Shown here one piece after another: positions 1-32,113 of a DNA stretch of 34,441 bases. The number at the start of each line of letters is the position of its first letter. The stretch's first letter is position 1. The translations under genes were made by a program, and so were the position numbers. Origin of the DNA: a virus; the UHGV virus genome UHGV-0156988. One strand, 5' to 3'. The notes under the pieces were generated by a model that was not told the DNA's origin, searched no databases, and saw only the letters and a list, made by a program, of their open reading frames with translations.

Positions 1-49
1 AAGGTATACTCTCATACCGTCATGACAATGGTTTCTATACGGGTGAATT

Positions 50-11765: not shown

Positions 11766-11921
11766 TGGATTATCTCTTACTTTTCTACTCTGGAGGCGTC
11801 TTAGGCTGCATGCCTTTTCACTGGCAACTTCGTCGCAACGAGAAGGTCATGTATCGAGTCATAAATACCGTCATCTGCTCCGCCATCTGGCCGATATTGC
11901 AAACTCCCAAGGTGAATATCA

Positions 11922-12260
11922 ATGGCTAAATCCGCAGCAGAACGCAAAGCCGCTCAGAGAGCAAGACAAGCTGCATCTGGTGTGCGTAAGCTGGAAATTG
12001 TGCTTGATGCTCAGGAAATTGAAATGCTGGAGCGTAACTGTGCCACTCGTCGCCCCGGGCGTGCACCTTACGAATTTGGTGAGTATATAGCGTTACTGAT
12101 CCGCCAGGATGATGCACGTGTGCGCGGGCGTATAAAATCGATCAGCAGAAAACGTTGCGGTAAGTGCGGCGAGAGAGTTCCAGTTAATTCATGCCCGTGT
12201 AATGGTGACTCGCAATGCTGGGTGACTAAAGGCTGGCATGAAACGAAATTAATAGTGTGA
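11922..12260 (+). CDS. Hypothetical DNA-binding protein, RHH-like N-terminus plus Cys4 zinc ribbon
   Basis: 112 aa; basic helical N-terminus (AERKAAQRARQAASGVRKLEIVLD) and C-terminal CGKCG...CPC cluster; SD AAGGTGAAT; stop lies inside TGTGACATGTCACG motif. Confidence 0.5.
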   Translation: MAKSAAERKAAQRARQAASGVRKLEIVLDAQEIEMLERNCATRRPGRAPYEFGEYIALLIRQDDARVRGRIKSISRKRCGKCGERVPVNSCPCNGDSQCWVTKGWHETKLIV

Positions 12261-12309
12261 CATGTCACGAGTAGATTATGCATGATGAATTTGACGGGTT
12301 TTGAATACT

Positions 12310-12335
12310 GCCGCCAACTATGGCGGCTTTATTTT
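12310..12335 (+). terminator. Rho-independent terminator upstream of terminase operon
   Basis: GCCGCCA-ACTA-TGGCGGC hairpin followed by TTTATTTT. Confidence 0.6.
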
Positions 12336-12346
12336 GCATGGTACTA

Positions 12347-12379
12347 TTACCACAACGGTAACTATTACCACGGTGGTTA
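12347..12379 (+). promoter_or_regulatory. Two adjacent operator sites immediately upstream of terS
   Basis: TTACC-ACAAC-GGTAA 12347-12361 (perfect) and TTACC-ACGGT-GGTTA 12365-12379; second site overlaps terS start codon. Confidence 0.5.
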
Positions 12380-12975
12380 TGATGTCTGCTGAACCTAAAA
12401 CCTATAAACGCAAATCAACGCAATTTAAGCCACTAACAGCAATGCAGGAGGCTTATTGCCTGTCATACATCAAAACGCCTGAAAACCAGACTCAGGCAGC
12501 GATTAACGCAGGATTCTCCCCAAATACAGCGGCAGTTAAAGCCAGTGTCATGATGCGTGATGAACGCATTAAAAAACGGATTGCCGAGTTGATGGAGGAG
12601 CGCAACAAACGAATGCGCGTCAGTGCTGATTACGTTCTCATGCGCCTGGTGGAGATCGACCAGATGGACGTGATTGATATCCTCAACGACGATGGGAGTC
12701 TTAAGCCAATCCGCGAGTGGCCGAAAATATGGCGCACTACGCTTAGCGGCTTTGATCTGTCATCGACCATCATGAACATGAACGAGGATTCGATAGAGAC
12801 AATCCTCAAAAAAATTAAATGGCCTGACAAGGTGAAGAACCTCGAACTGATTGGCAAGCACGTCGATGTCAATGCATTCAAAGAACGCCTGGATGTTAAT
12901 GTGAATGTGACAATTGCTGATCGCATAGCGGCAGCCAGGAAGCGACTCAAAGAACGTCAGGATGGTAATCAGTGA
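12379..12975 (+). CDS. Terminase small subunit
   Basis: About 199 aa; immediately upstream of and overlapping terminase large subunit; start moved from ORF-track 12301 because a terminator and operators lie in that extension. Confidence 0.7.
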   Translation: MMSAEPKTYKRKSTQFKPLTAMQEAYCLSYIKTPENQTQAAINAGFSPNTAAVKASVMMRDERIKKRIAELMEERNKRMRVSADYVLMRLVEIDQMDVIDILNDDGSLKPIREWPKIWRTTLSGFDLSSTIMNMNEDSIETILKKIKWPDKVKNLELIGKHVDVNAFKERLDVNVNVTIADRIAAARKRLKERQDGNQ

Positions 12976-14447
12976 CAGATACAGCGTTATCTCCTGAAGA
13001 GCAGTTGATCGAGGATATTGCAGGGTTCACTCACGATCCGCTTGGCTATGCCCTCTATGCGTTCCCGTGGGGGGAAGAGGGGACTGAACTGGCACATGCC
13101 ACCGGCCCACATCAGTGGCAGGCTGATGCGTTCCGAGAGATACGTGATCACCTGCAGAATCCAGAGACGCGCTATCAGCCGCTTATGCTGGCACGCGCTT
13201 CTGGTCACGGTATTGGTAAATCCGCATTCATCTCAATGCTGATCAACTGGGGCATGTCCACTTGCGAGGATTGTAAGGTCGTGGTGACCGCCAACACCGA
13301 CAACCAGCTACGAACGAAGACCTGGCCGGAAATTATCAAGTGGTCGAACCTTGCCATCACGAAAGACTGGTTTACCTGTACCGCTACCGCGATGTACAGC
13401 AATGATCCTGGGCACGACAAGCGGTGGCGAGCTGACGCAATCCCCTGGTCTGAGCACAACACTGAGGCATTCGCCGGACTACACAACGAGCGCAAACGCA
13501 TCATCGTGGTTTTCGACGAAGCATCCAACATTGCCGATCTGGTGTGGGAGGTAGCAGAGGGTGCGCTGACGGACGAAGACACCGAAATCATCTGGGTGGC
13601 GTTCGGGAACCCGACGCGTAATACCGGGCGTTTCCGCGAATGTTTCCGCAAATATAAACACCGCTGGAAAACTGCGCAGATTGACAGCCGGACGGTGGAA
13701 GGCACCAACAAACAGCAGTTGCAGAAATGGGTTGATGACTACGGGGAAGACAGCGACTTCGTTAAAATCCGTGTGCGCGGCATATTCCCTGATGCATCTG
13801 AATTGCAGTTTATCCCTACCGGTCTTACTGACGAGGCAATGAAACGGGTGGTAACTGCTGCGCAGGTGGCACATGCTCCGGTGATAATCGGCGTTGACCC
13901 TGCATACTCCGGTGTTGATGACGCGGTGATATACCTGCGGCAGGGGCTGCACAGTAAGGTGCTGTGGACCGGCAACAAGACCACTGACGATCTGATTATG
14001 GCAAAGCGTATCGCTGACTTTGAAGACCAGTATCAGGCTGACGCGGTGTTCATCGACTTCGGTTACGGTACCGGGCTGAAGTCAATCGGTGACGGTTGGG
14101 GGCGCACATGGCAACTTGTTCCGTTCGGTGGTGCGTCCACTGACCCGCAGATGCTTAACAAGCGTGGGGAGATGTTCAACTCATGCAAGACATGGCTGAG
14201 GCTGGGCGGCATGCTGGATGACCAGGAAACAGCGGACGACCTGTCGGCGGCAGAGTACAAAGTTCGAGTGGACGGTAAAATCGTTATCGAACCGAAGGAA
14301 GATATCAAGGAGCGGCTTGGGCGTTCGCCGGGTAAAGGCGATGCGCTACTGCTGACGTTTGCGTTCCCTGTGTCTAAGCGTCTGCGAATTCCCGGGCAGC
14401 AGAACCAGCAAGGCAAGGCCATTACAGATTACGATCCCTATGCTTAA
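12972..14447 (+). CDS. Terminase large subunit
   Basis: 491 aa; Walker A-like ARASGHGIGKS and C-terminal nuclease region; GTG start overlapping terS stop. Confidence 0.88.
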   Translation: MTDTALSPEEQLIEDIAGFTHDPLGYALYAFPWGEEGTELAHATGPHQWQADAFREIRDHLQNPETRYQPLMLARASGHGIGKSAFISMLINWGMSTCEDCKVVVTANTDNQLRTKTWPEIIKWSNLAITKDWFTCTATAMYSNDPGHDKRWRADAIPWSEHNTEAFAGLHNERKRIIVVFDEASNIADLVWEVAEGALTDEDTEIIWVAFGNPTRNTGRFRECFRKYKHRWKTAQIDSRTVEGTNKQQLQKWVDDYGEDSDFVKIRVRGIFPDASELQFIPTGLTDEAMKRVVTAAQVAHAPVIIGVDPAYSGVDDAVIYLRQGLHSKVLWTGNKTTDDLIMAKRIADFEDQYQADAVFIDFGYGTGLKSIGDGWGRTWQLVPFGGASTDPQMLNKRGEMFNSCKTWLRLGGMLDDQETADDLSAAEYKVRVDGKIVIEPKEDIKERLGRSPGKGDALLLTFAFPVSKRLRIPGQQNQQGKAITDYDPYA

Positions 14448-14497
14448 TCCGTTAGCGGGGATAATGACGGAGACATCCTCTGGTGAGGATAAAACAA

Positions 14498-14517
14498 AGC
14501 CAGCTCATCGGCTGGCT
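14498..14517. terminator. Bidirectional terminator hairpin between convergent terL and 14538-14909 gene
   Basis: AGCCAGC-TCATCG-GCTGGCT hairpin; T-rich on minus strand; immediately followed by TGTGACATGTCACG at 14521-14534. Confidence 0.5.
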
Positions 14518-14537
14518 GTTTGTGACATGTCACGGTG

Positions 14538-14909
14538 TTATTGCTCGCTTAACTTCTGCTTCAGCAAGTAACCTTCAAGCATCCAGATTTTGTTTACAGC
14601 ATTCTGCCGGGCAATCTTCCGACCAATTTCCGCATCAAAGTTTTCCGGGCTTGCACAGGCGCTCTCTCCGGTGACGGTGAAGCCGTTGCGCAGCACCAGA
14701 ACGCAGAACGTCAGCAGAGAAAGTGATTCGTGCGGCTGGTAGTTTACCTCTCCGCCAGTATGTTTCGCTTTTATGGCTACGCCAAAGACACCATCTTCTG
14801 CTGTGAAATATGCCTCCTGAGCAATAATGCTCTCGATATGGTCTGGCGTAACGCGCGGCGCGGCTAAACCTTTAGCCTGAATTTCAGATTCAATGTCTTT
14901 GTCACTCAT
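14538..14909 (-). CDS. Hypothetical protein (possibly Gp49/Sf6 gp66-like family)
   Basis: 123 aa; reverse orientation to flanking late genes; SD AAGGTGAG; family call is a loose recollection. Confidence 0.5.
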   Translation of the reverse strand: MSDKDIESEIQAKGLAAPRVTPDHIESIIAQEAYFTAEDGVFGVAIKAKHTGGEVNYQPHESLSLLTFCVLVLRNGFTVTGESACASPENFDAEIGRKIARQNAVNKIWMLEGYLLKQKLSEQ

Positions 14910-14925
14910 AGTCTAATCTCACCTT

Positions 14926-14949
14926 AAAAAAATGCCCGGCGAACCGGGC
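14926..14949 (-). terminator. Rho-independent terminator between tRNA and 14538-14909 gene
   Basis: On minus strand GCCCGG-TTCG-CCGGGC followed by T7, which runs directly into the SD of the downstream gene. Confidence 0.5.
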
Positions 14950-15112
14950 GAACTGGAAGCAATGAGTTATGCCTTCCGTGGCTGTACTGGTTTACAGCAT
15001 GAAGTCATCGCAATGGCGTCCTGCTGTAAAAAGGGCGGTGATAGTCCTTCAAGGGAAACCATCACCGCCAAGCCCCTGGAACTTCTGGCATCACGGTCCT
15101 TAGGCGTGATTC

Positions 15113-15189
15113 TGGCGTGGCATGCAGGATTCGAACCTGCGACCAACCGCTTAGAAGGCGGTTGCTCTGTCCAACTGAGCTAATGCCAC
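15113..15189 (-). tRNA. tRNA-Arg, anticodon UCU
   Basis: 77-nt cloverleaf folded by hand: acceptor GTGGCAT/ATGCCAC, D-arm GCTC/GAGC, anticodon stem ACCGC/GCGGT with loop CTTCTAA, T-arm GCAGG-TTCGAAT-CCTGC, discriminator G, encoded CCA. Confidence 0.88.
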
Positions 15190-15511
15190 AACGCTGAGAG
15201 CACTTAGCCTGTTAAGGCGCCACACTTTGTCGCGGCTCCATAAATGCTCTCATCGTTGCACCCTCGTCTCTTCCGAGGCGTCACACCGAATCGCCGGGAT
15301 GGTGAATCCCCGTGCGCGGAATAAAACCGCTCGACTTGCACATTCCGGCTACCTGGTTCGTTTGCCCGAGCAAGGGAGGGTGCCCCTTAAACGTATCCAG
15401 ACCGCTATCGGCGCATGTGCCATACGCCGTACTGCTCAAAATAAAATCTCACTCCACCTGTTCAATTTAACGACAAGCCAGTCAGGTTAATAACAGGAAT
15501 GCACTCTCTGC

Positions 15512-15526
15512 TTACCTGAAAGGTAA
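15512..15526 (+). promoter_or_regulatory. Operator site upstream of virion operon
   Basis: Perfect TTACC-TGAAA-GGTAA about 90 nt upstream of the first virion gene. Confidence 0.45.
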
Positions 15527-15616
15527 TAATTCGTGCGTTAAATGTCAACTGCCTACGATAAATAAATCATATGTGGTTAAATTGGTAATAATTTAATTGC
15601 GTACGGAGTCATTGAT

Positions 15617-15823
15617 ATGTGCATGGGTAGCTCACCATCAGTGCCTGCAACACCAGAAGTTCAGGCAGCACCACAGGAGCAGGATGCCGCCGTTGTTGAT
15701 GCCCGCGACGAAGAAACACGTCGCCGTCGCGCTGCTGCTGGTCGTAGTTCTACGCTGCTTACCGGTTCTCAGGGCGACACATCAACCGCTAATACCAGCG
15801 GTAAAACGCTGCTTGGTCAGTAA
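15617..15823 (+). CDS. Small virion-associated protein candidate (T7 gp6.7-like position)
   Basis: 68 aa; SD GGAG 8 nt upstream in a context (CGGAGTCATTGA) duplicated before the portal gene; begins MC..; low-complexity S/T/A-rich. Confidence 0.45.
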   Translation: MCMGSSPSVPATPEVQAAPQEQDAAVVDARDEETRRRRAAAGRSSTLLTGSQGDTSTANTSGKTLLGQ

Positions 15824-15837
15824 CCGGAGTCATTGAA

Positions 15838-17517
15838 ATGGCGGAAACAACTAAAGAGCGATTGAACAAACAGTTCGCACAACTTGAAAGCGAGCGTCAG
15901 TCGTTCGAGCCGCACTGGCGCGAGTTGAGTGATTACATCAACCCGCGTGGTTCCCGCTTTCTGACTTCTGAGGTCAACCGTAACGATCGACGCAATACAC
16001 GCATTATTGATTCGACCGGGACTATGGCGGCGCGCACTCTCGCCAGCGGCATGATGTCAGGCATCACAAGCCCCGCGCGTCCGTGGTTTCGCCTGGCTAC
16101 GCCAGATCCTGAAATGATGGATTATGGCCCTGTTAAGTTGTGGCTTGAGGCGGTGCAGAACCGTATGAACGATATGTTCAATAAGTCGAATCTCTATCAG
16201 TCGCTGCCGCAGTTATACGGAAGCCTCGGCACATACAGCACTGGTGCAATGGCGGTGCTGGAGGATGACGAGGACATCATTCGCACAATGCCATTCCCGA
16301 TAGGCAGTTACTACCTGGCTAACTCACCTCGTGGCAGTGTGGACACCTGTTTTCGCAAGTTCTCTATGACTGTTCGTCAGCTTGTTCAGGAATTCGGACT
16401 AAATAACGTCAGCGAATCCGTAAAAAGCATGTGGGAAAGCGGCACCTACGAGAAGTGGATTGAAGTGATGCATTCGGTTTACCCGAACATTGACCGCGAT
16501 ACATCGAAGCTGGATAGCAAGAACAAGCCATTCAAATCGGTTTATTACGAGGTTGGTGGCGATAACGACAAGTTGTTGCGTGAGTCCGGATTCGATGAGT
16601 TTCCAATTATGGCTCCGCGCTGGGAAGTTAACGGCGAAGATGTTTATGGATCATCATGCCCGGGCATGTTGGCGCTTGGACCTGTTAAAGCATTGCAGCT
16701 TCTTCAGAAGCGCAAGTCGCAGTTGATTGATAAAGCCACCAATCCGCCGATGGTTGCTCCGACTTCCCTCAAGAATCAGCGCGCCTCCCTTCTTCCTGGC
16801 GACATCACGTATATCGATCAGATTACTGGTCAGGATGGTTTCAGGCCTGCTTATCTGGTTAACCCCAGTACAGCAGATCTGGTAGCAGACATTCAGGATA
16901 CTCGCCAAATCATTAACAGCGCCTACTTTGTCGATCTGTTCATGATGTTGCAGAACATTAATACCCGCTCGATGCCTGTTGAAGCGGTGATCGAAATGAA
17001 AGAAGAAAAACTTCTGATGTTGGGGCCGGTTCTGGAGCGTCTGAACGACGAATGTCTTAACCCTCTCATTGACCGCGCTTTCTCGATGATGGTGCGTAAA
17101 AACATGCTGCCGCCACCGCCTGACGCGATGGAAGGTATGCCCCTGAAGGTCGAATACATTTCCGTCATGGCTCAGGCGCAGAAGTCTATCGGCCTGTCCA
17201 GTCTGGCGTCCACGGTTAACTTCATTGGTCAACTTGCGAAAGCGAAACCAGAAGCTCTCGACAAGCTCAACGTTGATCAGGCGATCGATGCATTCGCTGA
17301 TATGTCCGGAGTGTCTCCAACCGTCATTGTTCCGCAGGAACAGGTTGAGCAGGCTCGCCAGCAACGGGCACAGCAGCAACAGCAGCAACAAATGATGGCG
17401 ATGGGGATGGCGGCGGCACAGGGTGCCAAGACGCTAAGCGAAGCTAAAACTTCGGATCCGAGTGTGTTGTCAGCTATGGCGAATGCAGTTAGTGGTCAGG
17501 GTGGGCAATCACAATGA
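15838..17517 (+). CDS. Portal / head-to-tail connector protein, T7 gp8-like
   Basis: 559 aa; N-terminal and Gln-rich C-terminal tail (QQRAQQQQQQQMMAMGMAAAQG) resemble T7 gp8 as recalled. Confidence 0.8.
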   Translation: MAETTKERLNKQFAQLESERQSFEPHWRELSDYINPRGSRFLTSEVNRNDRRNTRIIDSTGTMAARTLASGMMSGITSPARPWFRLATPDPEMMDYGPVKLWLEAVQNRMNDMFNKSNLYQSLPQLYGSLGTYSTGAMAVLEDDEDIIRTMPFPIGSYYLANSPRGSVDTCFRKFSMTVRQLVQEFGLNNVSESVKSMWESGTYEKWIEVMHSVYPNIDRDTSKLDSKNKPFKSVYYEVGGDNDKLLRESGFDEFPIMAPRWEVNGEDVYGSSCPGMLALGPVKALQLLQKRKSQLIDKATNPPMVAPTSLKNQRASLLPGDITYIDQITGQDGFRPAYLVNPSTADLVADIQDTRQIINSAYFVDLFMMLQNINTRSMPVEAVIEMKEEKLLMLGPVLERLNDECLNPLIDRAFSMMVRKNMLPPPPDAMEGMPLKVEYISVMAQAQKSIGLSSLASTVNFIGQLAKAKPEALDKLNVDQAIDAFADMSGVSPTVIVPQEQVEQARQQRAQQQQQQQMMAMGMAAAQGAKTLSEAKTSDPSVLSAMANAVSGQGGQSQ

Positions 17518-17810
17518 CAGATTACGAAGACGATCAACTGAAAGAAGAAAACGACCGTAAGCAACGTGACATGGCACAGCGTGAAATTGATGACATTCGC
17601 TTTGTCATGAGCAGTGAACAGGGGCGTCGCGTTGTCTGGTCGGTGCTGGAGAAAGGCCGTGTGTTTTCCGCTATCTCACCGATGGACGCTATGGCAATGG
17701 CATTTAATGAGGGGCAACGCAATCTGGCGCTGGAACTGTTTCAGCGCGTTATGGCGCATTGCCCTGAACAGTATTTGAAGATGGCCAAAGAGGCCAGTGA
17801 ACAGGAGTGA
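17514..17810 (+). CDS. Hypothetical protein
   Basis: 98 aa; ATGA overlap with portal stop. Confidence 0.5.
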   Translation: MTDYEDDQLKEENDRKQRDMAQREIDDIRFVMSSEQGRRVVWSVLEKGRVFSAISPMDAMAMAFNEGQRNLALELFQRVMAHCPEQYLKMAKEASEQE

Positions 17811-17812
17811 TC

Positions 17813-18508
17813 ATGAATTTATTTGAGCGTTTGCTGTATAGCCGTCTTTGCAATGAGCAACCAGTCGATGGTGGAGCAGCTCCGGCTGCGTCAGAACCGT
17901 CAGCGCCTGCAGGTGATAACCCTGCTCCAGTTGGTGATCCATCACAACAGGAAGGTGATAAGCCACAACCTGTTGCTGATGGCGATAAACCTGCTGATGA
18001 CAAAAAGCCTGAAAACGATAAGCAGGATGAAAAAAAGGACGGCGATAAACCAGATGGTGCGCCTGAGAAGTACGAGTTTCAGGCTGCCGAAGGCGTAGAG
18101 CTGGATACAGAAGCATTGAAGGAATTCGAGCCGGTGGCGCGAGAACTTAACCTGACCAACGAGCAAGCGCAAAAGCTGGTTGATGCTTATCCGAAGATTC
18201 TGGCAGGTGTTCAGCAGCGCCAGGCAGAAGCCTGGCAGAAAACAACCGAGCAGTGGGCTGCGGATGTAAAAGCTGACAAAGAAATCGGTGGCGACAAGTT
18301 GATTTCTAACCTTAGCGCCGCACAGCGTGCGCTTGACCAGTTCGGGACACCTGAACTCAAAGAATATCTGAACACCACCGGGCTGGGTAATCACCCTGAT
18401 CTGGTCAAAACGTTCGTGAAAATCGGAAAGGCGATGTCTGAAGATGGCATGGTCACCGGTGGTAATGAAGGCCAGCGTAGTGCGGCCGAAGTGCTCTATG
18501 GCAAATAA
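17813..18508 (+). CDS. Scaffolding protein candidate
   Basis: About 231 aa, acidic and Pro/Lys/Asp-rich N-terminus, helical C-terminus; between portal and capsid genes; SD CAGGAG. Confidence 0.5.
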   Translation: MNLFERLLYSRLCNEQPVDGGAAPAASEPSAPAGDNPAPVGDPSQQEGDKPQPVADGDKPADDKKPENDKQDEKKDGDKPDGAPEKYEFQAAEGVELDTEALKEFEPVARELNLTNEQAQKLVDAYPKILAGVQQRQAEAWQKTTEQWAADVKADKEIGGDKLISNLSAAQRALDQFGTPELKEYLNTTGLGNHPDLVKTFVKIGKAMSEDGMVTGGNEGQRSAAEVLYGK

Positions 18509-18516
18509 GAGAGGAA

Positions 18517-19509
18517 ATGACAATGGCTGTTAAAGGCTTAACTGCGCTAACGCTGGCTGACTGGGGTAAGCGCGTCGATCCAAACGGGAAAGTCGATAAG
18601 ATTATCGAGCTTCTCGGTCAAACTAACCCGATCCTTCAGGATATGCCTTTTGTCGAAGGGAACCTTCCTACCGGACACCGAACCACCATTCGTTCTGGTT
18701 TACCTTCAGCTACCTGGCGTTTGCTGAACTATGGCGTACAGCCAAGCAAATCAACCACAGTGCAGGTAACCGATTCCGTTGGCATGCTGGAAACCTATGC
18801 TGAAGTCGATAAATCACTGGCTGATCTGAACGGCAATACCGCTGAATTCCGCCTGTCTGAAGACCGCGCATTTATTGAAGCGATGAATCAGCAGATGGCG
18901 CAGACGCTGTTTTATGGTGATTCCAGCGTTAACCCTCAGCAGTTTATGGGACTGTCCTCCCGCTATTCCAGCCTGTCTGCGGGTAATGCTCAGAACATCA
19001 TTGATGCTGGTGGCACGGGTACAGATAACACCTCAATCTGGTTAGTGGTGTGGGGCGAAAACACCGTGCATGGCATCTTCCCGAAAGGGAAGAAGGCTGG
19101 CATCCAGATGGAAGATAAAGGCCAGGTGACACTGGAAGATGCTAATGGCGGCAAGTACGAAGGCTATCGCACCCATTACAAATGGGACAACGGACTTGCT
19201 CTGCGTGACTGGCGTTATGTTGTTCGCATTGCAAACATCGATGTCAGCAATCTTTCAGAACCTTCCTCTGCCGCAAATATTGCGAAGTTGATGGTTAAAG
19301 CACTGCATCGCATTCCAAACCGTGGAATGGGTCGCCCGGTGTTCTACATGAACCGCACTGTATGCCAGGCTCTTGATCTGCAATCTCTGGAGAAAACATC
19401 TCTGGCGATCAGCGTAAAAGAGACAGAAGGCGAGTGGTGGACTTCATTCCGTGGTGTACCAATCCGTGAAACTGATGCGCTTCTGGAAACAGAAGCCCGT
19501 GTGGTGTAA
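18517..19509 (+). CDS. Major capsid protein
   Basis: 330 aa after scaffold-like gene, SD GAGAGGAA; followed by stem-loop and strong terminator downstream. Confidence 0.65.
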   Translation: MTMAVKGLTALTLADWGKRVDPNGKVDKIIELLGQTNPILQDMPFVEGNLPTGHRTTIRSGLPSATWRLLNYGVQPSKSTTVQVTDSVGMLETYAEVDKSLADLNGNTAEFRLSEDRAFIEAMNQQMAQTLFYGDSSVNPQQFMGLSSRYSSLSAGNAQNIIDAGGTGTDNTSIWLVVWGENTVHGIFPKGKKAGIQMEDKGQVTLEDANGGKYEGYRTHYKWDNGLALRDWRYVVRIANIDVSNLSEPSSAANIAKLMVKALHRIPNRGMGRPVFYMNRTVCQALDLQSLEKTSLAISVKETEGEWWTSFRGVPIRETDALLETEARVV

Positions 19510-19560
19510 CGCCTGTTATTAACCAGTGGGTCTGTTACGACCCACTAATGGAGAAAGAAG

Positions 19561-19998
19561 ATGATCACCGACAAACTGTTGATGTTCTCCGAAGCACAGG
19601 CGGTAACTGATACCGCGGCTTCTACTGACGTAATCGATCTAGGTCCAATTGATGGAAATCGTCGCGATATCGGCGTGGGTTACCCGCTTGAGTTTTGGGC
19701 GCTGGTTAACGAAGCCGCCACGGCAAGTGGTGAGGCAACTGTAAACATCCAGTTGCAGACGAGTGAGAATAACAGCTCATGGTCCACTATTTATGATAGT
19801 GGCGCACTGGCAAAGGCTACCCTGACAGCAGGTAAACGAGTTGTTTCTGCAAAGGTGCCTGCCGGTGTTCAGCGATATCTGCGTGTTAACTACTCCGTCG
19901 CAACTGGCCCACTAACGGCCGGCAAATTCACTGCGGGTATTAGTCTGGATGTTGATGCCAATACACCGTACCCGATCCGCTCAAAAGTAACTGGTTAA
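19561..19998 (+). CDS. Hypothetical virion protein (possible capsid decoration protein)
   Basis: 145 aa, Thr/Ala/Gly-rich, directly after capsid gene with SD GGAGAAAG. Confidence 0.45.
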   Translation: MITDKLLMFSEAQAVTDTAASTDVIDLGPIDGNRRDIGVGYPLEFWALVNEAATASGEATVNIQLQTSENNSSWSTIYDSGALAKATLTAGKRVVSAKVPAGVQRYLRVNYSVATGPLTAGKFTAGISLDVDANTPYPIRSKVTG

Positions 19999-19999
19999 G

Positions 20000-20344: not shown

Positions 20345-20360
20345 GCCTCGCGAATCAGAC

Positions 20361-20382
20361 AAGGGGCTTCGGCCCCTTTATT
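20361..20382 (+). terminator. Rho-independent terminator (UUCG tetraloop) after capsid gene block
   Basis: AAGGGGC-TTCG-GCCCCTT followed by TATT. Confidence 0.7.
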
Positions 20383-20394
20383 GCAGGAGTGTAT

Positions 20395-24258: not shown

Positions 24259-24803
24259 TGTGCGATCCGGTTATTGCTGGTGGCGCAATGCTCGCCATGA
24301 GTGGCATTCAGGCATACACCCAGTACCAACAGGGAAAGTATGCCTCGAAGGTTGCAGAAGCGAACGCAGATATAGCCACTGCTCAGGCAAATGATGCAAT
24401 AAACAGAGGTAACGCTGAAGCTGAGCAACGGCGCAGAGAGCTCCGACAGCGGCTTGGTACACAGGCGGCGACAATGGGGGCGACCGGCGCTGATTTATCT
24501 ACCGGTAACGCGCTGGATATATTTGGCGACACTGCCCAGTTTGGCGCCCTTGATTCGCTGACGACGGTGAATAACGCGCAACGCGAGGCTTACGGTTATC
24601 AGGTTCAGGCTGCCAATTATAAAGCAGAAGCCAGTTCAGCCCGTAAACAGGGGAATGTGGGAGCAGCAACAACATTGCTCACTGCTCCTCTGAAGGCATA
24701 CGGTGCGTACCAGATGTTTGGTGGGACGTGGAGTCCGTTTACTCAAAGCACTCCTGCGCCAATCGGGGCAGCAGCAGGAACCAGATTACCCGGAGGATTA
24801 TAA
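24258..24803 (+). CDS. Internal virion protein B, T7 gp14-like
   Basis: 181 aa; N-terminus MCDPVIAGGAMLAMSGIQA resembles T7 gp14 N-terminus as recalled. Confidence 0.55.
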   Translation: MCDPVIAGGAMLAMSGIQAYTQYQQGKYASKVAEANADIATAQANDAINRGNAEAEQRRRELRQRLGTQAATMGATGADLSTGNALDIFGDTAQFGALDSLTTVNNAQREAYGYQVQAANYKAEASSARKQGNVGAATTLLTAPLKAYGAYQMFGGTWSPFTQSTPAPIGAAAGTRLPGGL

Positions 24804-27316
24804 TGCCAGTCGTACCAACAGTATCCGGACGCCAGGTTGAGAGCCGTGGAGTTCAGTCAGCAGGCTTGCAGACGTTTTCTCAGCCAGGTATTGGTGATGC
24901 TTTTGTTCGGGCAGGGACAGAGGCAATTGATGTTTTAGGGCAGGCAAAACAGCGTGCCAATATCGCTCTGGCTCAGGATGCTTCTCTTAGCTTAAGCCAG
25001 ATAAGCAGCGATCTGCTGAATAACCCTGAAACAGGTTTGCTTAACCTGAAAGGGAAAAATGCTATTGGAAAAGGTCAGGAGTATACGCAGCAGTTTGATG
25101 CCCAGGTCGAGCAACTGGCTATGTCGCTGCCGGATGAACAAGCTCGTAATGCTTTCATGCAGCAGGCGCAGCAGCAGCGCATTCAGTTCACTACGCAGGC
25201 CGGGCGGCACGAGATAGGGCAAATAAATGCCTACGAAGAAGGCCAGTTTCAGGCGACGCTGCTGAACAATGGTAAAAATGCCGCAGCATTGTATGGCGAC
25301 AACGCCGCATACGTATTGGCTAATAAGCAAACTTTCCAGCAAATTGAGGATTATGGCATTGCGCATGGCTGGAGCGACGAGCAAATCCAGGCCAAGAAAA
25401 TCGAGTTTAAAGAGAAGGTTGCTGATGCCGCATTGTCCCAGTGGTCGGCAAACAATGCGACCGCATTCATCCAAAGTAATGGCGAGTTAAGTGATACTGC
25501 TGCTGGAGCTCGCCGTGCTGTAACAGATAGTGGCTCTTCCGAGCGTGTCCGTGGCATACGCAACAATAACCCCGGAAATCTCGAATACAGCAAAACTAAT
25601 CCGTGGGTAGGCCAGACCGGTGATGATGGTAGATTTGCTAAATTCGAAACACCTGAACACGGGATTCGTGCATTAGGGCGGAACCTGATGTCGTATCAGC
25701 GGCAGGGTATTGATACCGTCAGCGAGATAATTAATCGCTGGGCACCGCCTACTGATAAAAATGACACTATGTCGTATATCAAAGCAGTGTGCGAACAACT
25801 TGGCGTTTCTGCTGATGAGCCTCTCGATGCATCTAATCCTGATACCCTGAAGGCGCTTTGTGCAGCCATTATCCATCATGAGAACGGTAGCCAGCCATAC
25901 AGTGATCAGCAGTTAACTGCTGGTGTCAGTGCAGCACTTGGTTTATCAACAATTCCAACCAACACCAAACGCTATACCGGTAATGCAGCATTCGATGCGG
26001 CATCTCCTGAGGCGCAGGCAAGTTTTATGCGACAGGCGGATCAACTGCGTCGGCAGCAGCAGGCTGAATATAAAACGATGATTGACAGCCAGGTTCGCGA
26101 TGCGACAGCTGCGTATATGCGTGGCGTTGAATTTCCTAACCCACCTGGTGAGGCTGATTTTATTGCAGCTTATGGAGTCAGAGAAGGAAACCTGCGATAT
26201 ACCGAGTTCAGAAATACGCAAATCGCCGGACAGTATATAGGCTCTTTCCGCAACATGCCGACAAGCAGCATTACAGCATATGTTGAGCAATTACGCCCGG
26301 ATACTGGTGAGACAGGGGAGGGTTATGCGGCACGAGCCGCTCTTTATGACAACGTTGTGTCGGCTGCAAGTCAGGTGATAAAGCAGCGACAGGCTGATCC
26401 TGTACAGTTCTCTCTTGCCGCCGGACAGGCAAAGCCTATCGACATGAGCAATAAGGATAACTTTGGACAGAGCGTTGCCTTGCGTGCTACTCAGGTCAGT
26501 GACCTTGCTAAGTCATATGGCACTCCACTGACGTTCTTTTCCAAAGACGAGGCCAATCAGATCGGTGTTTTCTTTCGTGATGCGCCCGTTTCCCAACAGG
26601 CAGCATATCTCGATACCATCAGGCAGAGCACTGGTGGTGGGCAGGTGTATATGTCAGCACTACAGCAGATCAGTGCCAACGCTCCATCTGCTGCCGTTGC
26701 CGGGATACTGATGGATAAGCCAGGTGGTATTTTGGCAGAAAAAAACTGGTTTAATCCGGATGTTTCCGTGTCTCCTGAAACCGCTGCGCAGACAATTCTT
26801 GCTGGCGCGGCGGCTCGTAAAGGTACTGATGACGCGAAAGGTATTCCGATGCCTAAAGATGCTGATCTCCGCCTTGAGTTTTCTGACATGGTGAAGGATG
26901 CATTTGCTGGTGATGCTCAGGGGGCATCAATGGCATACGAGATCGCAAAGGACTATTACGCTGGTGTGATGGCGAAAAAAGGCGTGATATCAGGCGAAAT
27001 TGACACTGATATCTGGAAACAGGCTGTTAACGTAGCTACAGGTGGCGTGCATGACTATAACGGAATGGGGAATGTCCTTTTGCCGTGGGGAATGTCTGCA
27101 GAGCAATTCGATAAGCAGGTTAATCAGGCTTGGAATGAACAAGTTGTCGGCTCCGGGATAAAAACACCGCCTGGTCAGTATGGTTTGCAAAGTTACGGCG
27201 ATAGTCAGTACCTGGTGAAACTTGGTACTGGTTATCTGCTGAAAGATGATGGTTCTCCCGTTGTTCTTAATCTGACACAGAAACGTCAGAGATTCTCCGG
27301 AGATATTCCGCAATGA
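24803..27316 (+). CDS. Internal virion / ejection protein, gp15-like
   Basis: 837 aa from ATG 24803 (TAATG overlap); Gln/Ala-rich helical regions; embedded segment GIRNNNPGNLE...W.G at 25540-25900. Confidence 0.55.
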   Translation: MPVVPTVSGRQVESRGVQSAGLQTFSQPGIGDAFVRAGTEAIDVLGQAKQRANIALAQDASLSLSQISSDLLNNPETGLLNLKGKNAIGKGQEYTQQFDAQVEQLAMSLPDEQARNAFMQQAQQQRIQFTTQAGRHEIGQINAYEEGQFQATLLNNGKNAAALYGDNAAYVLANKQTFQQIEDYGIAHGWSDEQIQAKKIEFKEKVADAALSQWSANNATAFIQSNGELSDTAAGARRAVTDSGSSERVRGIRNNNPGNLEYSKTNPWVGQTGDDGRFAKFETPEHGIRALGRNLMSYQRQGIDTVSEIINRWAPPTDKNDTMSYIKAVCEQLGVSADEPLDASNPDTLKALCAAIIHHENGSQPYSDQQLTAGVSAALGLSTIPTNTKRYTGNAAFDAASPEAQASFMRQADQLRRQQQAEYKTMIDSQVRDATAAYMRGVEFPNPPGEADFIAAYGVREGNLRYTEFRNTQIAGQYIGSFRNMPTSSITAYVEQLRPDTGETGEGYAARAALYDNVVSAASQVIKQRQADPVQFSLAAGQAKPIDMSNKDNFGQSVALRATQVSDLAKSYGTPLTFFSKDEANQIGVFFRDAPVSQQAAYLDTIRQSTGGGQVYMSALQQISANAPSAAVAGILMDKPGGILAEKNWFNPDVSVSPETAAQTILAGAAARKGTDDAKGIPMPKDADLRLEFSDMVKDAFAGDAQGASMAYEIAKDYYAGVMAKKGVISGEIDTDIWKQAVNVATGGVHDYNGMGNVLLPWGMSAEQFDKQVNQAWNEQVVGSGIKTPPGQYGLQSYGDSQYLVKLGTGYLLKDDGSPVVLNLTQKRQRFSGDIPQ

Positions 27317-29115
27317 GTTACTTTGGCCTTAATCCAGTAAACCAGAATCAGCAGCTTGACGAAGCAGCATCAAATCCAGCTGGCTTTAACAGCGATGTTG
27401 GTTTTTTCGACAATGCTGTAGGAGCGGCATTGTCTGGTTTGTACTCCGGGCTGGTGGCAAAGCCAGATCAGTTGCTATGGGCAGGGATGGATAAAATCGT
27501 ATCCCCGATTGCTCAGTTTGTTAACGAAAACACCTCGCTCAATGACACTTCAGTTTCATACATTGCTGAGCAGAGAAAACTAGCAGAGCAGCAGGTTAAG
27601 CGGCTGACGCCTGATGCCGCGACAACCGGAACCGCCGGGCAGGTCCTTTATGGGTTGTTCGATATGGGCGGGCAGGCTGTTGTTGGTACAACGCTCGGTG
27701 GTCCGGTCGGAGGTGCTGCGGCGGTAACTTCGCTACAGGGTTTTTCTGAGTTTGAACGGCTGACAGCACAGGGTGTTGATTTCAGGACGGCGCAGGAAGC
27801 GGGATTAGTGCAGGGTATTACTGCTGGTGCCGGAACACTGATCCCTATGAGCCTCGGGTTACGTGCTGGTGGTGCGCTGGCGGAAGGTGTGGCGGCTCAG
27901 CTTGCGCGGACGGGTGAAAGTTCAGTGCGACGCGCCGCAGCAACAGCAGTACGTGCAACGCCAGATATTGCCTATGCCGCAGGTACAAATATTGCGTTCG
28001 GTATGGCACAGCGTGGGCTTACTGCAAAAACGCTTCGTGATGGTGGCTATAGCGAAATGGCTAATCAGTATGATGTGTTGGATCGACAGGCAATTGCTAT
28101 TGATGCTGTTCTTGGAGTGGCGTTTGGTGGTGTCGGCAGATTTATTAACTCTCGCGGCGAGTCTACAAGCGCACCAAATTTTTCACCAGTTGATGTCGAT
28201 GCTGCACTGGCGGCGAATGCCGCTCATCATGCTGAAATTGATATTGCTCCCGGTGTGCCGATCAACGTGCTTTCGCGTAATTCGCACATTCAGGCTCTGC
28301 GAAAAGCCATGTCTGATGTTAGCCAGGGGATACCTGTAGACGTTGCCAGCATTGTTGAGTCTGCATCTTTCAGTGAAATTCCTGGGCGCAAGAGTCTGCT
28401 TTCTCAGGCAGTTAATGAGGCTCTGTCATCTGTAGATGATGGAGTAACGGCGCGCGCTATAGAAAATCGGTTGCTTGAAGAACAGGCCGCGCAGCTTTTG
28501 CCGCGTGGCGATAGACAGGTTTACCAGTCTGAAATCGCTAATAGCCAACGAATTATTGAAAATCTCACTGAACAGCGCGCACAAATTCTTGCAGAAGAGC
28601 CAACCGGTAGCGGTAAAGCTTTGTCTCGTGCTCGATCAGATAAACAGGCCAGACTTCGCGATATTGATCAACGAATCCGGCAGGCACAAGAACGCCTGGA
28701 GTTTTCCCGTAACGCGTTGGCACCGCACGAGCCTGGCGGTCAGTTTTTTGAAGCTCGAGCAGAACTGGCACGACGACAGCAGGCAGAAAGTGAACTTAAT
28801 GCTCAGGCTGTTTCATTCTATAAAACAGCAGAGGTCAGGACGCCAGACGAAGTAGCTCCTTTTGAGCCCGGTAAGATATTGCAACAGACAGAACAAAAAA
28901 TGATGGCAGATCCGGCAGGAGATATTGATCTGCGTATAGCTGAAGACTCGCTGCTTGAATCTCCGGACATGATAATCACCGTGCTGGATGATGATGGTAA
29001 TCCACAATCGCGCAGTGCGCGTGAAGTACTGGATGAAGCGAACAGGGAAAGTGAGCAGGCAATACAGGATTCCAGCCTGTTTGATGTTGCTGTGGCGTGT
29101 TTCTTGAGAGGTTAA
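27313..29115 (+). CDS. Internal virion / ejection protein (possible N-terminal part of a split gp16 analogue)
   Basis: 600 aa; ATGA overlap with upstream gene; Ala/Gly-rich N-terminal half. Confidence 0.5.
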   Translation: MSYFGLNPVNQNQQLDEAASNPAGFNSDVGFFDNAVGAALSGLYSGLVAKPDQLLWAGMDKIVSPIAQFVNENTSLNDTSVSYIAEQRKLAEQQVKRLTPDAATTGTAGQVLYGLFDMGGQAVVGTTLGGPVGGAAAVTSLQGFSEFERLTAQGVDFRTAQEAGLVQGITAGAGTLIPMSLGLRAGGALAEGVAAQLARTGESSVRRAAATAVRATPDIAYAAGTNIAFGMAQRGLTAKTLRDGGYSEMANQYDVLDRQAIAIDAVLGVAFGGVGRFINSRGESTSAPNFSPVDVDAALAANAAHHAEIDIAPGVPINVLSRNSHIQALRKAMSDVSQGIPVDVASIVESASFSEIPGRKSLLSQAVNEALSSVDDGVTARAIENRLLEEQAAQLLPRGDRQVYQSEIANSQRIIENLTEQRAQILAEEPTGSGKALSRARSDKQARLRDIDQRIRQAQERLEFSRNALAPHEPGGQFFEARAELARRQQAESELNAQAVSFYKTAEVRTPDEVAPFEPGKILQQTEQKMMADPAGDIDLRIAEDSLLESPDMIITVLDDDGNPQSRSAREVLDEANRESEQAIQDSSLFDVAVACFLRG

Positions 29116-29120
29116 ATTAA

Positions 29121-31595
29121 ATGAGACAGGAATGTATACAAGCGGTCCAGCAGGCGGCGCAGCGCACGTTAACGGCGCGAGAAATACAGAACATTGAAGA
29201 CCGCATTTATCGAAATATGCGCTCCATTGCTCGTGATGACCCGATGTCGTGGCGACAACTTTCCGAATCAGAACGGTTGTATCGTGCAGCACAATTGGCA
29301 TCTGAAGAATTACAGCGAGAAGCGGCATTAAAGAAACGTCGTGTGGCCCTCACTATAGCCGCACGTCAGAGATTGGATAAATTTATCAATAGCTATCAAG
29401 GGGCTGATGGGAAACTTGGCGCTCTTAACCGTACTATTGCTTTTAATGCAGACGGTAAATCGAATTTCCTCTCTGTTGAATCCAGAACAAAAGCCACCCG
29501 TGATTATGCATTGAGTCAATTGCAGGAGGCATTCGAAGCAGTTGATCCTCGCTTTTTTGGTCTGTTTGAAGATGAAGCGGGCGTACGTGACCTGGTATAT
29601 GAAATGCGGGGGCAAAATACTGGCAATGCTAAAGCAAGAAAAGGTGCTAAGGCGTGGAGAGAAGTTACAGAGCTGCTGCGCCGCCGGTTTAATGATGCTG
29701 GTGGGGACATTGGCTATCTCGAAAACTGGGGGATCCCTCAACATCATTCTATGGAAAAGGTTGGGGCGGTATCAAAAGATAAATGGGTTAGCGATGTTAT
29801 AGGTAAGCTGGATCGCAAATATTATACCCGAGCCGATGGACAACTGATGAACGATGCCGAGTTGTCTGCATTTCTTGGAGAGGCTTATAACACGATCGCT
29901 ACTGGTGGGCTGAATAAGCTTACTGATACCGGAATGCGAATTTCCGGCGCACGTGCTAACCGTGGTAATGCATCACGACAGATACATTTCAAAGATGCAG
30001 ATTCCTATCTGCAATATCAGCAACTTTATGGCGATCGCTCTCTATGGGAAATCATGGTCGGTCACCTTGAAGGTATCAGTAAAGATATTGCACTGGTGGA
30101 AACATATGGCCCAAACCCCGATCATGTTTTCCGCTCTCTTCTTGATCAGGTGAAGGCAGAAACGGCAACAGCTAACCCGAGTAAAACCGGTAAAGTCGAG
30201 CGGCTGGCGAACAACACAGAGAATCTGTACAACTTTATTTCCGGAAAGACACAGCCTGTAGCGAATCCGCACATCGCGCGATGGTCTGACAATATCCGCA
30301 ACTGGCTGGTTGCCAGCAGACTCGGATCCGCGTTGCTGTCATCGTTCTCTGATCTTGGAACCATGTATCTGTCTGCGAAGGTTACCAACCTTCCAATGAA
30401 CCAGTTATTCCGCAACCAGCTTGAAGCTATGGACCCAACGAACCGTACAGAACTTGCGCGGGCGCGCCGCGCTGGTCTGGCGATGGAATCTCTACTTGGC
30501 AGCGTTAACCGCTGGGCGATGGATAATATGGGGCCGTCTGTGTCTCGTTGGGCTGCAACGGCGGTAATGCGTGCCAGTGGGCTTACAGCATGGTCAGATG
30601 CGCACAAGCGCGCCTATGGCGTAACCATGATGGGAAGCCTGGGAGAAGTAGTGTCACGGACACCAGACCTTCGTAGCCTCGATGATTCTGATTTTCGTAT
30701 CCTGAAAAGCAAAGGGATTACTGACACAGACTGGAGCGTATGGAAGCTGGCGCAACAGGAGGACTGGGGGAACGGCAATAATACGATGCTGACACCGGAA
30801 AGCATTATGCGTATCCCTGATTCAGCAGTTAAACATCTTGGTGAGCCTGAACGCGTGAAATTTGAGGCAATGCGTAAACTGCTCGGTGCCGTAACTGAAG
30901 AAGTTGATATGGCTGTTATTACACCGGGAGCACGTGAGCAACTGATAACCGGTTCTGGTATTCAGCGTGGAACATGGAAAGGTGAATTAACGAGAAGTGT
31001 TTTCCTGTTTAAATCGTTCCCTATCTCGGTGGTTATGCGTCACTGGTCACGCGCTATGGGTATGCCGTCTGCTGGTGGGCGTGCGGCATATATTGCGACG
31101 TTTATTGCCAGTACGACCATTCTTGGCGCTTTGTCGCAGCAACTTAACGACCTTGCGTCTGGTCGTAATCCTCGCGAGATGACAGGAGAAGATGCTGCTA
31201 AATTTTGGCTTGGTGCTCTACTGAAAGGTGGTGGTCTTGGCCTTTACGGTGACTTTTTATTGTCAGATCACACTAGGTACGGAAGCGGCGCGCTGGCGTC
31301 GATGCTTGGCCCGGTAGCTGGTCTGGTTGATGACGTAGTGAAGATTGCTCAGGGCATACCGTTAAATGCTGTGGAAGGGAAGAGTGAGCAGACTGGTGGT
31401 GATCTGGTGAAGCTGGGGAAAGGTTTGATGCCAGGTGCGAATCTCTGGTACTTAAAGGCGGCTCTCGATCATATGATCTTTAACCAGATGCAGGAGTATT
31501 TTTCACCAGGCTATTTGCGTAAAATGGAGCAACGTTCGAAGAAAGAGTTTAACCAGACATACTGGTGGCGACCTCAGGATGTCACTCCGCAATAA
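29121..31595 (+). CDS. Internal virion / ejection protein (possible C-terminal part of a split gp16 analogue)
   Basis: 824 aa; last large gene before tailspike. Confidence 0.5.
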   Translation: MRQECIQAVQQAAQRTLTAREIQNIEDRIYRNMRSIARDDPMSWRQLSESERLYRAAQLASEELQREAALKKRRVALTIAARQRLDKFINSYQGADGKLGALNRTIAFNADGKSNFLSVESRTKATRDYALSQLQEAFEAVDPRFFGLFEDEAGVRDLVYEMRGQNTGNAKARKGAKAWREVTELLRRRFNDAGGDIGYLENWGIPQHHSMEKVGAVSKDKWVSDVIGKLDRKYYTRADGQLMNDAELSAFLGEAYNTIATGGLNKLTDTGMRISGARANRGNASRQIHFKDADSYLQYQQLYGDRSLWEIMVGHLEGISKDIALVETYGPNPDHVFRSLLDQVKAETATANPSKTGKVERLANNTENLYNFISGKTQPVANPHIARWSDNIRNWLVASRLGSALLSSFSDLGTMYLSAKVTNLPMNQLFRNQLEAMDPTNRTELARARRAGLAMESLLGSVNRWAMDNMGPSVSRWAATAVMRASGLTAWSDAHKRAYGVTMMGSLGEVVSRTPDLRSLDDSDFRILKSKGITDTDWSVWKLAQQEDWGNGNNTMLTPESIMRIPDSAVKHLGEPERVKFEAMRKLLGAVTEEVDMAVITPGAREQLITGSGIQRGTWKGELTRSVFLFKSFPISVVMRHWSRAMGMPSAGGRAAYIATFIASTTILGALSQQLNDLASGRNPREMTGEDAAKFWLGALLKGGGLGLYGDFLLSDHTRYGSGALASMLGPVAGLVDDVVKIAQGIPLNAVEGKSEQTGGDLVKLGKGLMPGANLWYLKAALDHMIFNQMQEYFSPGYLRKMEQRSKKEFNQTYWWRPQDVTPQ

Positions 31596-31604
31596 GGAAG
31601 TGTT

Positions 31605-31781
31605 GTGTTTTTAATTATTTTGAGTGTGATAATTTCTGGTGGGTTGTTATTTATTGACCGCTACAAATATTTTCTTAACCCTCAGACTCAAGCTATTTGC
31701 TGGTTCATCTTTGTTGTGCAGGGAATAGTTCTTGTTGCAAGCCTTATTGAGGGGAGGCCTCTGATTTTTACTGGGTAAATA
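31605..31781 (+). CDS. Small hydrophobic peptide, two predicted TM segments
   Basis: Not in ORF track; GTG 31605 (or 31626) after AGGAAG; about 58 aa, almost entirely hydrophobic. Confidence 0.25.
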
Positions 31782-31790
31782 GGTGACTAC

Positions 31791-32087
31791 ATGCAAGCTA
31801 TAGGATTCATTGTTTATATCGTCGTTGGTCTTTTTCAGTTGGCAGCAATTATGGCTGGGCTTGAATCATGGTGGGGATTGCACTGGATAATTGCAGCCCC
31901 CATTGCTTTCATCGTGAGCTATATTCCATTTGTTGGAGCGATTGTTGGTATGGTTGGCGCTGTGGATGTATGGCGGTGGGAGTGGTGGCAGGCTGGCCTT
32001 CTCTTCTTTGGTGGGATCATCTTTGCTATTGTCTGCGGTGGAATGTCATCATTTTTCGAATGGCTATCATTCAGAAAAAGAGCGTGA
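31791..32087 (+). CDS. Small integral membrane protein, three predicted TM segments
   Basis: 98 aa, SD AGGTGA; Gly/Ile/Val/Trp-rich hydrophobic stretches with basic C-terminus FRKRA. Confidence 0.6.
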   Translation: MQAIGFIVYIVVGLFQLAAIMAGLESWWGLHWIIAAPIAFIVSYIPFVGAIVGMVGAVDVWRWEWWQAGLLFFGGIIFAIVCGGMSSFFEWLSFRKRA

Positions 32088-32095
32088 CATGTCAC

Positions 32096-32113
32096 AGGCC
32101 GCTCTTGCGGCCT
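32096..32113. terminator. Bidirectional terminator hairpin between convergent genes
   Basis: AGGCCGC-TCTT-GCGGCCT; TTTAAATTT on plus side, CTCTTTTTCT on minus side; abuts GTGACATGTCAC at 32084-32095. Confidence 0.55.

Follow-up and report, generated by a model that had tools for sequence, protein, structure and literature searches.

A symmetric site repeated in a Uetakevirus prophage co-occurs with, and is probably bound by the product of, a gp49-family gene

UHGV virus genome UHGV-0156988, a stretch of 34,441 nucleotides (nt) referred to here at its full length as the window, carries the 14-mer TGTGACATGTCACG in three exact copies, and we asked what kind of element this is and what might recognize it. 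The window (34.4 kb) holds most of a prophage of the genus Uetakevirus (phiV10/epsilon15 type); its gene order is that of the phiV10 and epsilon15 records, and positions 11000 to 15500 are 98% identical to Escherichia coli O157 typing phages and phiV10. An earlier note placed the copies at 12256-12269 and 14521-14534 on the plus strand and at 32083-32096 on the minus strand, and these positions and orientations are correct and far above chance. With up to two mismatches allowed, the window has seven strand-matches to the 14-mer against 0.28 expected, a number attained in none of 100 shuffles, and the core GTGAC-N2-GTCAC occurs three times against ~0.06 expected; no GTGAC/GTCAC pair was found in the window at spacings of 0, 1, or 3 to 7. 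The 14-mer is a selected, non-random element. Its first copy (site 1, core 12257-12268) lies over the TGA stop codon (12258-12260) of a plus-strand gene, 11922-12260, whose 112-aa product belongs to the epsilon15 gp49/N15 gp46 family (phiV10 p55, phrog_536) and is the binding protein that we propose below.

The shape of the site was read from 57 pooled copies in genomes and loci that were not picked by the motif, in which the search definition itself fixes the half-sites GTGAC and GTCAC. The position before the core is T or C and the position after it G or A in 108 of 114 symmetrized cases, which argues for the inverted repeat YGTGAC-N2-GTCACR as the functional unit. The flank pairs T...G, C...A, T...A, and C...G all occur among the 57 sites, and the asymmetry of the 14-mer, which the earlier note had stressed, is uninformative, T...G being one of these four permitted combinations; the third copy in epsilon15 reads TGTGACATGTCACA. 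Within the core, only the two central bases vary: they are AT in 37 of the 57 sites, and site 2 of PAT1 (GTGACAGGTCAC, centre AG) indicates that the central dinucleotide can change. A near-copy on the minus strand of the window at 17565-17578 (TGTGCCATGTCACG, core GTGACATGGCAC), absent from the earlier note, has one mismatch and lies inside the Bbp19-like gene 17514-17810; it is present in phiV10 but absent at the homologous place in epsilon15 and is therefore probably not a functional site. A second one-mismatch relative of the core, GTCACTGGTCAC, occurs at 31039-31050 inside the gene for an 824-aa virion protein (29121-31595).

The strongest regularity in the distribution of the site is its position relative to the gp49-family gene, a link that the earlier note did not make. 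Scanning viral contigs with the 14-mer returned many matches directly 3' of a gene ending in ...GWHETKL..., the family of gene 11922-12260. In ~40 viral contigs, with proteins 50 to 100% identical, the core begins at the last base of the final sense codon and provides the TGA stop, and this codon is always NNG regardless of the amino acid; where the stop lies elsewhere, the site follows it by 2 to 6 nt (6 nt in one contig group). Copies 1 and 3 of the window overlap TGA stop codons because the motif itself holds TGA. The site still lies over the TGA stop where homologues are only 33 to 35% identical (N15 gp46 and L208), and two contigs with homologues at 33 to 38% identity show the same behavior. 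Past gene and site, the DNA is unrelated between phage groups: depending on the group, the site is followed by a terminator, repressor operators, and terS; by an immediate ribosome-binding site and a gene; or by a LexA-box promoter. In nine prophages (L004, L005, L008, L022, L033, L114, L120, L211, and L212), a promoter resembling TTGAC[TG]-17-TATACT comes 8 to 9 nt after gene and site and is overlapped by a LexA-box-like TACTGT-N8-ACAGTA, so that the site stands just upstream of an SOS-type promoter.

A tblastn search found the family in 154 phage records (Escherichia, Salmonella, Klebsiella, Yersinia, Pectobacterium, Aeromonas, and Vibrio), and among 1.84 billion proteins it amounts to only 154 cluster representatives. 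Seven full or near-full genomes with the gene, from four unrelated groups, each contain exactly three GTGAC-N2-GTCAC sites (~0.05 expected): the Uetakevirus group (the window, phiV10, epsilon15, and PAT1), the myovirus ZF40 (5125, 7622, and 14944, the last just 3' of its gp22), the plasmid-prophage N15 (28550, 33237, and 39269, the last over the stop of gene 46; centre TG or CA), and the Vibrio phage K233 (21342, 33227, and 35942; centre GC or AC). Other spacings from 0 to 7 are empty in these seven genomes, save for one N3 site in K233. In an unbiased set of 21 loci from 21 bacterial species, picked by protein similarity alone (54 to 87% identity; 408 kb), there are 34 N2 sites against 0.39 expected and none at N0, N1, or N3 to N8; 20 of the 21 loci have a site, which lies within 5 nt of the gene stop in 14 and overlaps it in 12. 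No N2 site occurs in three controls that lack the gene: lambda, the P22-like phage BIS08P22 (53% identical terL), and Pseudomonas phage Ab31, which shares the epsilon15-type terminase and virion module. Lambda (L207) has two GTGAC-N1-GTCAC at 9747 and 19010, in G and lom, where 0.05 are expected, possibly by chance. As far as these comparisons reach, the motif tracks the gp49-family gene and not terminators, and gene and site appear to form one co-inherited module with about three copies of the site per phage. Such a protein-plus-site module, common to many unrelated temperate phages of enterics and vibrios, is the most likely reading of the data.

What kind of protein does this gene encode? 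The gp49 protein of the window has no sequence match in Pfam, NCBIfam, or the PDB, and a protein search of viral_contigs returned only relatives at 97 to 100% identity. Its layout comprises a basic N-terminal helix, a core resembling a ribbon-helix-helix (RHH) fold, a long helix, and a Cys-rich zinc ribbon. In a 57-member alignment the basic helix is conserved (consensus RKxxQRxR; 90% or more of the members have R8 and R13) and is followed by a strand, two helices with PYxxxEY, a long helix, and CxxCGxxLP...C...GDxxCW. The AlphaFold2 model has a predicted local distance difference test score (pLDDT) of 91.9, and Foldseek searches of the PDB and BFVD with it gave nothing significant. The helix before the strand is the best-conserved element on the DNA-facing side, whereas the strand is variable, a pattern that would parallel the invariant half-sites and the variable centre of the DNA site.

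These observations suggest that the product of 11922-12260 probably binds YGTGAC-N2-GTCACR as a dimer, the three copies in the window being its double-stranded DNA recognition sites. Of the explanations offered by the earlier note, a protein-binding element fits best, given a conserved, symmetric, non-random site that co-occurs with the gene for a protein of DNA-binding type. The closest parallel that we found is MatP. The E. coli matS consensus is GTGACATTGTCAC (PMC3116907, PMC3603311, PMC8669397), more generally GTGAC[AG]N[TC]GTCAC (PMC3116907, PMC3603311), and MatP recognizes it through alpha4 and beta1, both of which enter the major groove (PMC8669397). Phage sites and matS share the inverted GTGAC/GTCAC half-sites with T/C and G/A flanks, and both are few, dispersed, and single, without arrays. 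The gp49-family profile is co-linear with MatP residues 71 to 139 (alpha4, beta1, the RHH helices, and the start of the coiled coil), albeit at just 5.8 bits, a score equaled in 45 of 5,000 composition-matched shuffles. A search for MatP homologues gave almost solely sequences ~98 to 100% identical (one at 69%), too uniform for a diverse profile. Against a single MatP sequence, hhalign of the family returned a nonsignificant probability of 0.9%. By analogy with MatP, the basic helix with R8 and R13 would read the GTGAC half-sites, the ribbon strand would overlie the two variable central bases, and the C-terminal zinc ribbon would be free for oligomerization or a partner.

The differences from MatP are nevertheless substantial. 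The phage spacer is 2 bp and that of matS 3 bp, and N3 (matS-type) sites number zero in the window, epsilon15, ZF40, N15, and the 21 prophage loci. At 112 aa, gp49 lacks the first three bundle helices and the C-terminal coiled coil; a single helix precedes its strand, its long helix leads into a zinc ribbon, and the domains for ZapB and tetramer contacts are missing, as is any match to Pfam PF06303 or PF17414. The MukE-bridging residues H38-D42 have no counterpart either. Furthermore, the protein is phage encoded, with sites on the phage genome, one of which lies at the stop codon of its own gene. We do not regard gp49 as an established member of the MatP family, since spacer, Pfam domains, and flanking domains all fail, and the resemblance that we infer is one of reading mode and target. 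It is a long shot, and one that we think quite improbable, that gp49 and its sites are a phage-borne sister of MatP/matS, a portable chromosome-organizing module whose role would be to fold or anchor phage DNA or else to disturb Ter, MukBEF, or the division machinery of the host, with the one-base difference in spacer keeping the two systems orthogonal and MatP/matS perhaps a domesticated phage module.

The same likeness could instead mean that a host protein binds the sites, either MatP itself or a reader of GTGA...TCAC such as SlmA, so that the phage exploits the chromosome-organizing machinery of its host and gp49 is irrelevant. The half-sites and Y/R flanks are indeed identical to those of matS. 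Vibrio and Aeromonas also have MatP, and the host range of the gp49 family (enterics, Vibrio, and Aeromonas) overlaps that of MatP, which is reported from enterics (PMC7188993). Against this, every known matS has a 3-bp spacer, phages with gp49 have no N3 sites apart from the one in a Vibrio phage, prophages are reported to avoid true matS (PMC3603311), no N2 site occurs in the control phages of these hosts that lack gp49, and the tight linkage to the gp49 stop codon would go unexplained. The SlmA site GTGAGTACTCAC is likewise a 12-bp palindrome with the same outer GTGA...TCAC, but its consensus has G and C at positions 5 and 8, where the phage site has C and G, and SlmA, a host protein of the TetR family, is not linked to the phage gene. 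The outer bases shared by MatP and SlmA sites have been noted previously (PMC3116907). Altogether, we consider a host binder very unlikely.

Might the element act in RNA instead? The earlier note had set each copy beside a terminator hairpin and offered antitermination, processing, or stability among its explanations. The three GC-rich hairpins are where it placed them, and all score as intrinsic terminators. The first (stem 12310-12327, with T-tract 12310-12335, plus strand) closes the early-right operon and has a homologous stem-loop annotated in the epsilon15 record; site 1 lies 40 nt upstream of it and ahead of terS. The second (14498-14517) is bidirectional, scoring as a minus-strand terminator and folding on the plus strand too, and lies between terL (which ends at 14447) and the convergent minus-strand gene 14538-14909; site 2 (14521-14534, core 14522-14533) stands between this hairpin and that gene, 4 nt ahead of the gene's stop. 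The third (32096-32113, plus strand) ends the virion-gene operon between the convergent genes 31791-32087 (plus) and 32120-32392 (minus), and site 3 (32083-32096, core 32084-32095) lies over the TGA stop (32085-32087) of the former and adjoins the hairpin. The gap between 14-mer and hairpin is thus 40 nt for copy 1, 3 nt for copy 2 (4 nt from the core), and none for copy 3, which shares base 32096.

A stem-loop formed by the transcribed motif could, with the neighboring terminator hairpin, control termination, processing, or stability, and the fixed spacing of the two abutting copies across the genus speaks for this, as does a predicted fold with two adjacent stem-loops, which bears out one part of the earlier note. 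The motif alone, however, pairs over only 4 bp (-2.7 kcal/mol), a fold that 20 of 200 shuffles match. C5 and G8 must be loop bases, because a 5-bp stem would leave an impossible 2-nt loop, yet they are as invariant as the stem bases (the half-sites being fixed by the search definition), and no half-site carries a compensatory change, the centre alone being variable. A perfect hairpin of at least 6 bp lies within 45 nt of 20 of the 57 sites and of none of the other 37; many sites are inside genes, and a site may precede a hairpin, follow it, or be distant from it, depending on the copy. The terminator as the organizing principle is therefore not supported: the linkage is real for two copies and in this genus, where the 14-mer is kept at gene ends, but copy 1 is 40 nt away, and elsewhere the sites are in genes and away from terminators. 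RNA elements of the nut/put, processing, or stability type have a stable, covarying structure in a fixed orientation, which is lacking here, and the motif co-occurs with a protein of DNA-binding type. A symmetric dimer that recognizes the DNA duplex would account for this pattern, whereas an RNA structure would not, and an RNA-level role has, in our estimate, hardly any chance of being correct.

Conservation within the genus also speaks for a protein-binding site. Among the window, epsilon15, and PAT1, identity at each of the three homologous places is 92 to 100% in the core but 48 to 75% in the 60-nt flanks. Site 2 is kept in place in epsilon15, PAT1, and six prophages of other species, and site 3 in epsilon15 (19517), phiV10 (19493), and PAT1 (3438). 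The arrangement of terL stop, hairpin, 4 nt, and core is retained in eight loci with compensatory changes in the stem; its bases covary in relatives at a constant 4-nt gap to the core. In the window (14535-14541) and in L008, L042, L068, L091, L099, L113, L002, and L210, unrelated convergent genes end with their stop 4 to 5 nt from site 2 (GG[CT][GA][CT]TA), and site 2 with its hairpin forms a fixed joint beside a swappable gene cassette. The gene ahead of site 3 (31791-32087) differs from phiV10 p21. All copies are retained in phiV10, one of them split over the ends of the record (L001; 1-9 and 39100-39104), which was linearized inside site 1. A genome end or cos site was rejected as an identity for the motif, as the record begins in it merely through linearization after the p55 stop codon. 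In the phiV10 record, the annotated terS (41..715) takes in the terminator and operators from its upstream start, and comparison with epsilon15 suggests that it has probably been drawn too long. The epsilon15, phiV10, and N15 records carry no annotation of the sites.

Sites for packaging, replication, or recombination (pac-like sites, fork barriers, or hot spots for mosaic joints), with no role in transcription, might account for part of this. Two direct copies bracket terS-terL in the window, the site of Vibrio phages lies 23 to 31 nt upstream of terS, one N15 site is within repA, and the DNA on one side of sites 1 to 3 is mosaic between relatives. The sites of ZF40, N15, Providencia, and Rouxiella phages, in contrast, are far from terminase genes, and proximity is confined to this genus and the Vibrio phages. 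Sites in cII/YdaT-like genes occupy one and the same codon position even where the phages have diverged, a sign of vertical conservation as opposed to scars of insertion, and gp49 has no nuclease or recombinase domain. We regard this alternative as highly improbable.

Outside the genus, the sites occupy a range of settings, many of them within coding sequence: in cII/YdaT-like genes, over codons 2 to 5 of Q antiterminator genes, in N15 repA, and in an AlpA-like gene. One site of ZF40 and of the Providencia and Rouxiella phages falls in the 3' portion of a YdaT/cII-like gene, where it covers equivalent codons for (R/C)DMS(Q/R); such embedded sites occur at 7622 in L203, at 6138 in L225, L229, and L230, and at 5732 in L231, and also in L018, L027, L053, and L116, among Pectobacterium, Providencia, and Rouxiella phages. 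A lambdoid group (L009, L014, L019, L071, L112, and L121) has the site over codons 2 to 5 (M-RDMS-Q) of the Q gene (PF06530); in L071 this site is at 1238-1249, and the gp49 homologue lies in the opposite early operon with GTGACCTGTCAC at its stop. In N15, another site lies ~24 nt upstream of the -35 element of a promoter-like TTGACG-17-TAGAGT upstream of gene 32, which we take to be the anti-immunity operon.

Given the likeness of GTGACA to TTGACA, the motif might itself be a -35-like element for short or antisense transcripts, possibly activated or repressed by gp49. Possible partners are seen at site 1 (GTGACA-18-CATGAT, rightward) and site 3 (GTGACA-18-AATGAT, leftward), a Providencia cII-like site reads GTGACA-16-TAAAAT in antisense, reminiscent of lambda oop, and a -10-like hexamer at 16 to 18 nt is found in 12 of 114 directions against 4.9 expected. 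These matches are weak (9 of 12 positions) and not conserved among epsilon15, PAT1, and the window, and ~90% of site directions have no -10 element. Moreover, a -35 element needs one half-site, but here both halves and their exact spacing are invariant, and we think a promoter extremely unlikely. Three other identities were rejected. A prophage repressor operator is excluded because the epsilon15 operators differ (ATTACC-N5-GGTAAT) and the immunity region has no 14-mer; a CRP or LexA box is excluded by spacing and sequence, on inspection; and a Q-like late activator site or PR'-like promoter is excluded because ZF40 and N15 have separate Q genes and -10 elements are not conserved. True repressor operators of the epsilon15 type do occur nearby: two (ATTACC-N5-GGTAA) lie at 12336-12382 in the window, between the early-operon terminator and terS. 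In the epsilon15 record, operators of this type are annotated ahead of terS, ahead of gp3, and in the interval from gp19 to gp20, so that the repressor seems to control the late operons directly.

Each of these alternatives explains part of the local picture, and none explains both the linkage to the gene and the absence of the site from phages without it, which leads back to binding by gp49 and to the question of what binding would do. In the window, three transcription units that run rightward (the early-right operon, terS-terL, and the virion operon) each end at one of the sites, and elsewhere sites lie at the 5' end of Q, in cII-like genes, and before terS, which is to say along the path from early to late expression. 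Because of these positions, we tentatively suggest that bound gp49 might act as a DNA gate or insulator for transcription across the three boundaries, a possibility to which we give rather less than even weight. With one site at the gene's own stop and about two others elsewhere in each phage, the gene itself would be transcribed and the DNA downstream of it controlled. Bridging of dispersed sites, as proposed for MatP, is conceivable by analogy, though we consider it unlikely. A mimic of MukBEF unloading is also unlikely: MatP contacts MukE through residues of its helix bundle, which gp49 does not have.

Several observations count against the proposal as a whole. The link between gene and site is a correlation, and it is imperfect: the Providencia, Rouxiella, and L213 loci have a gp49 homologue with no site at the gene end, and a Yersinia P2-like phage has a single site. 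Site positions vary between phage groups, and no single regulatory logic fits all of them. A spacing of 0 to 4 nt from the hairpin would be poor for roadblock-assisted intrinsic termination, since polymerase arriving from that side would run into the bound protein with the hairpin still incompletely transcribed. In addition, the 57 family members brought up no MatP match in Pfam at E<=10 among the 25 families listed.

Other known systems were compared with gp49 and its sites. RHH repressors such as P22 Arc and Mnt, CopG, and antitoxins have operators that overlap the promoters they repress, usually upstream of their own gene, whereas gp49 sites are at gene 3' ends, between convergent genes, or in coding sequence, with a -10-like element at promoter spacing in just the 12 of 114 directions given above; the extra basic helix and zinc ribbon also fall outside the classical family. 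Partition modules (ParB-parS, SopB-sopC, and ParG/omega) share with gp49 a site immediately downstream of the binder gene and inherited with it, dispersed copies are known for the N15 SopB sites, and type Ib and II centromere binders are RHH proteins. Unlike in these modules, gp49 has no neighboring NTPase gene in the window, ZF40, or N15, each site is one 14-bp unit without repeat arrays, and the module occurs in integrating phages that need no partition. The C-terminal half of gp49, a helix and a CxxC-G-x2-[LIV]-P zinc ribbon, gave the sole PDB sequence matches, weak ones to the DksA/TraR-type proteins TraR (E = 0.028) and YbiI (E = 0.033), with an hhalign probability of 67%, and the ZF40 gene lies in a nin-like region. 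The zinc ligands differ, however (CxxC-x8-C-x7-C in gp49 and CxxC-x17-CxxC in DksA/TraR, with the fourth placed differently), the helix aligned to the channel-inserting helix of TraR is the second RHH helix in gp49, and the fold search with the gp49 model did not return TraR.

An RHH-like protein with a cognate symmetric site would follow a known principle, while the architecture of gene and site appears unusual and the relation to matS intriguing. The literature searched contained no paper with the 12-mer and none on MatP-like phage proteins, and the ZX5 paper concerns other regulators. The proposal supplies a concrete, testable partner and target for a family that has no match in Pfam, NCBIfam, or the PDB, although prophages of Escherichia, Salmonella, Klebsiella, Citrobacter, Yersinia, Pectobacterium, Vibrio, and Aeromonas commonly carry it. 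Its 14-bp site can be searched in any genome and marks operon boundaries and regulatory genes (cII-like, Q, and terS), and gp49 may be an unrecognized control point of the early-to-late switch in several phage groups, among them N15-type phage-plasmids and phiV10, an O157 typing phage. Being nearly identical to matS, the site also raises the questions of how RHH proteins measure half-site spacing and whether phages carry MatP-like DNA organizers.

In high-GC viral contigs, the 14-mer is found within dense arrays of GTGAC/GTCACG half-sites, with 5 to 9 per 120 nt. Such arrays lie at ~10.75 to 10.9 kb in L021, ~1.85 to 2.0 kb in L069, ~0.7 to 0.8 kb in L040, ~3.1 to 3.2 kb in L050, and ~10.8 to 10.9 kb in L107, apparently inside open reading frames that encode an ERKRRQRER-type basic stretch followed by VT/RD repeats. 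The arrays look iteron-like, and the basic stretch that they encode resembles the N-terminal helix of gp49.

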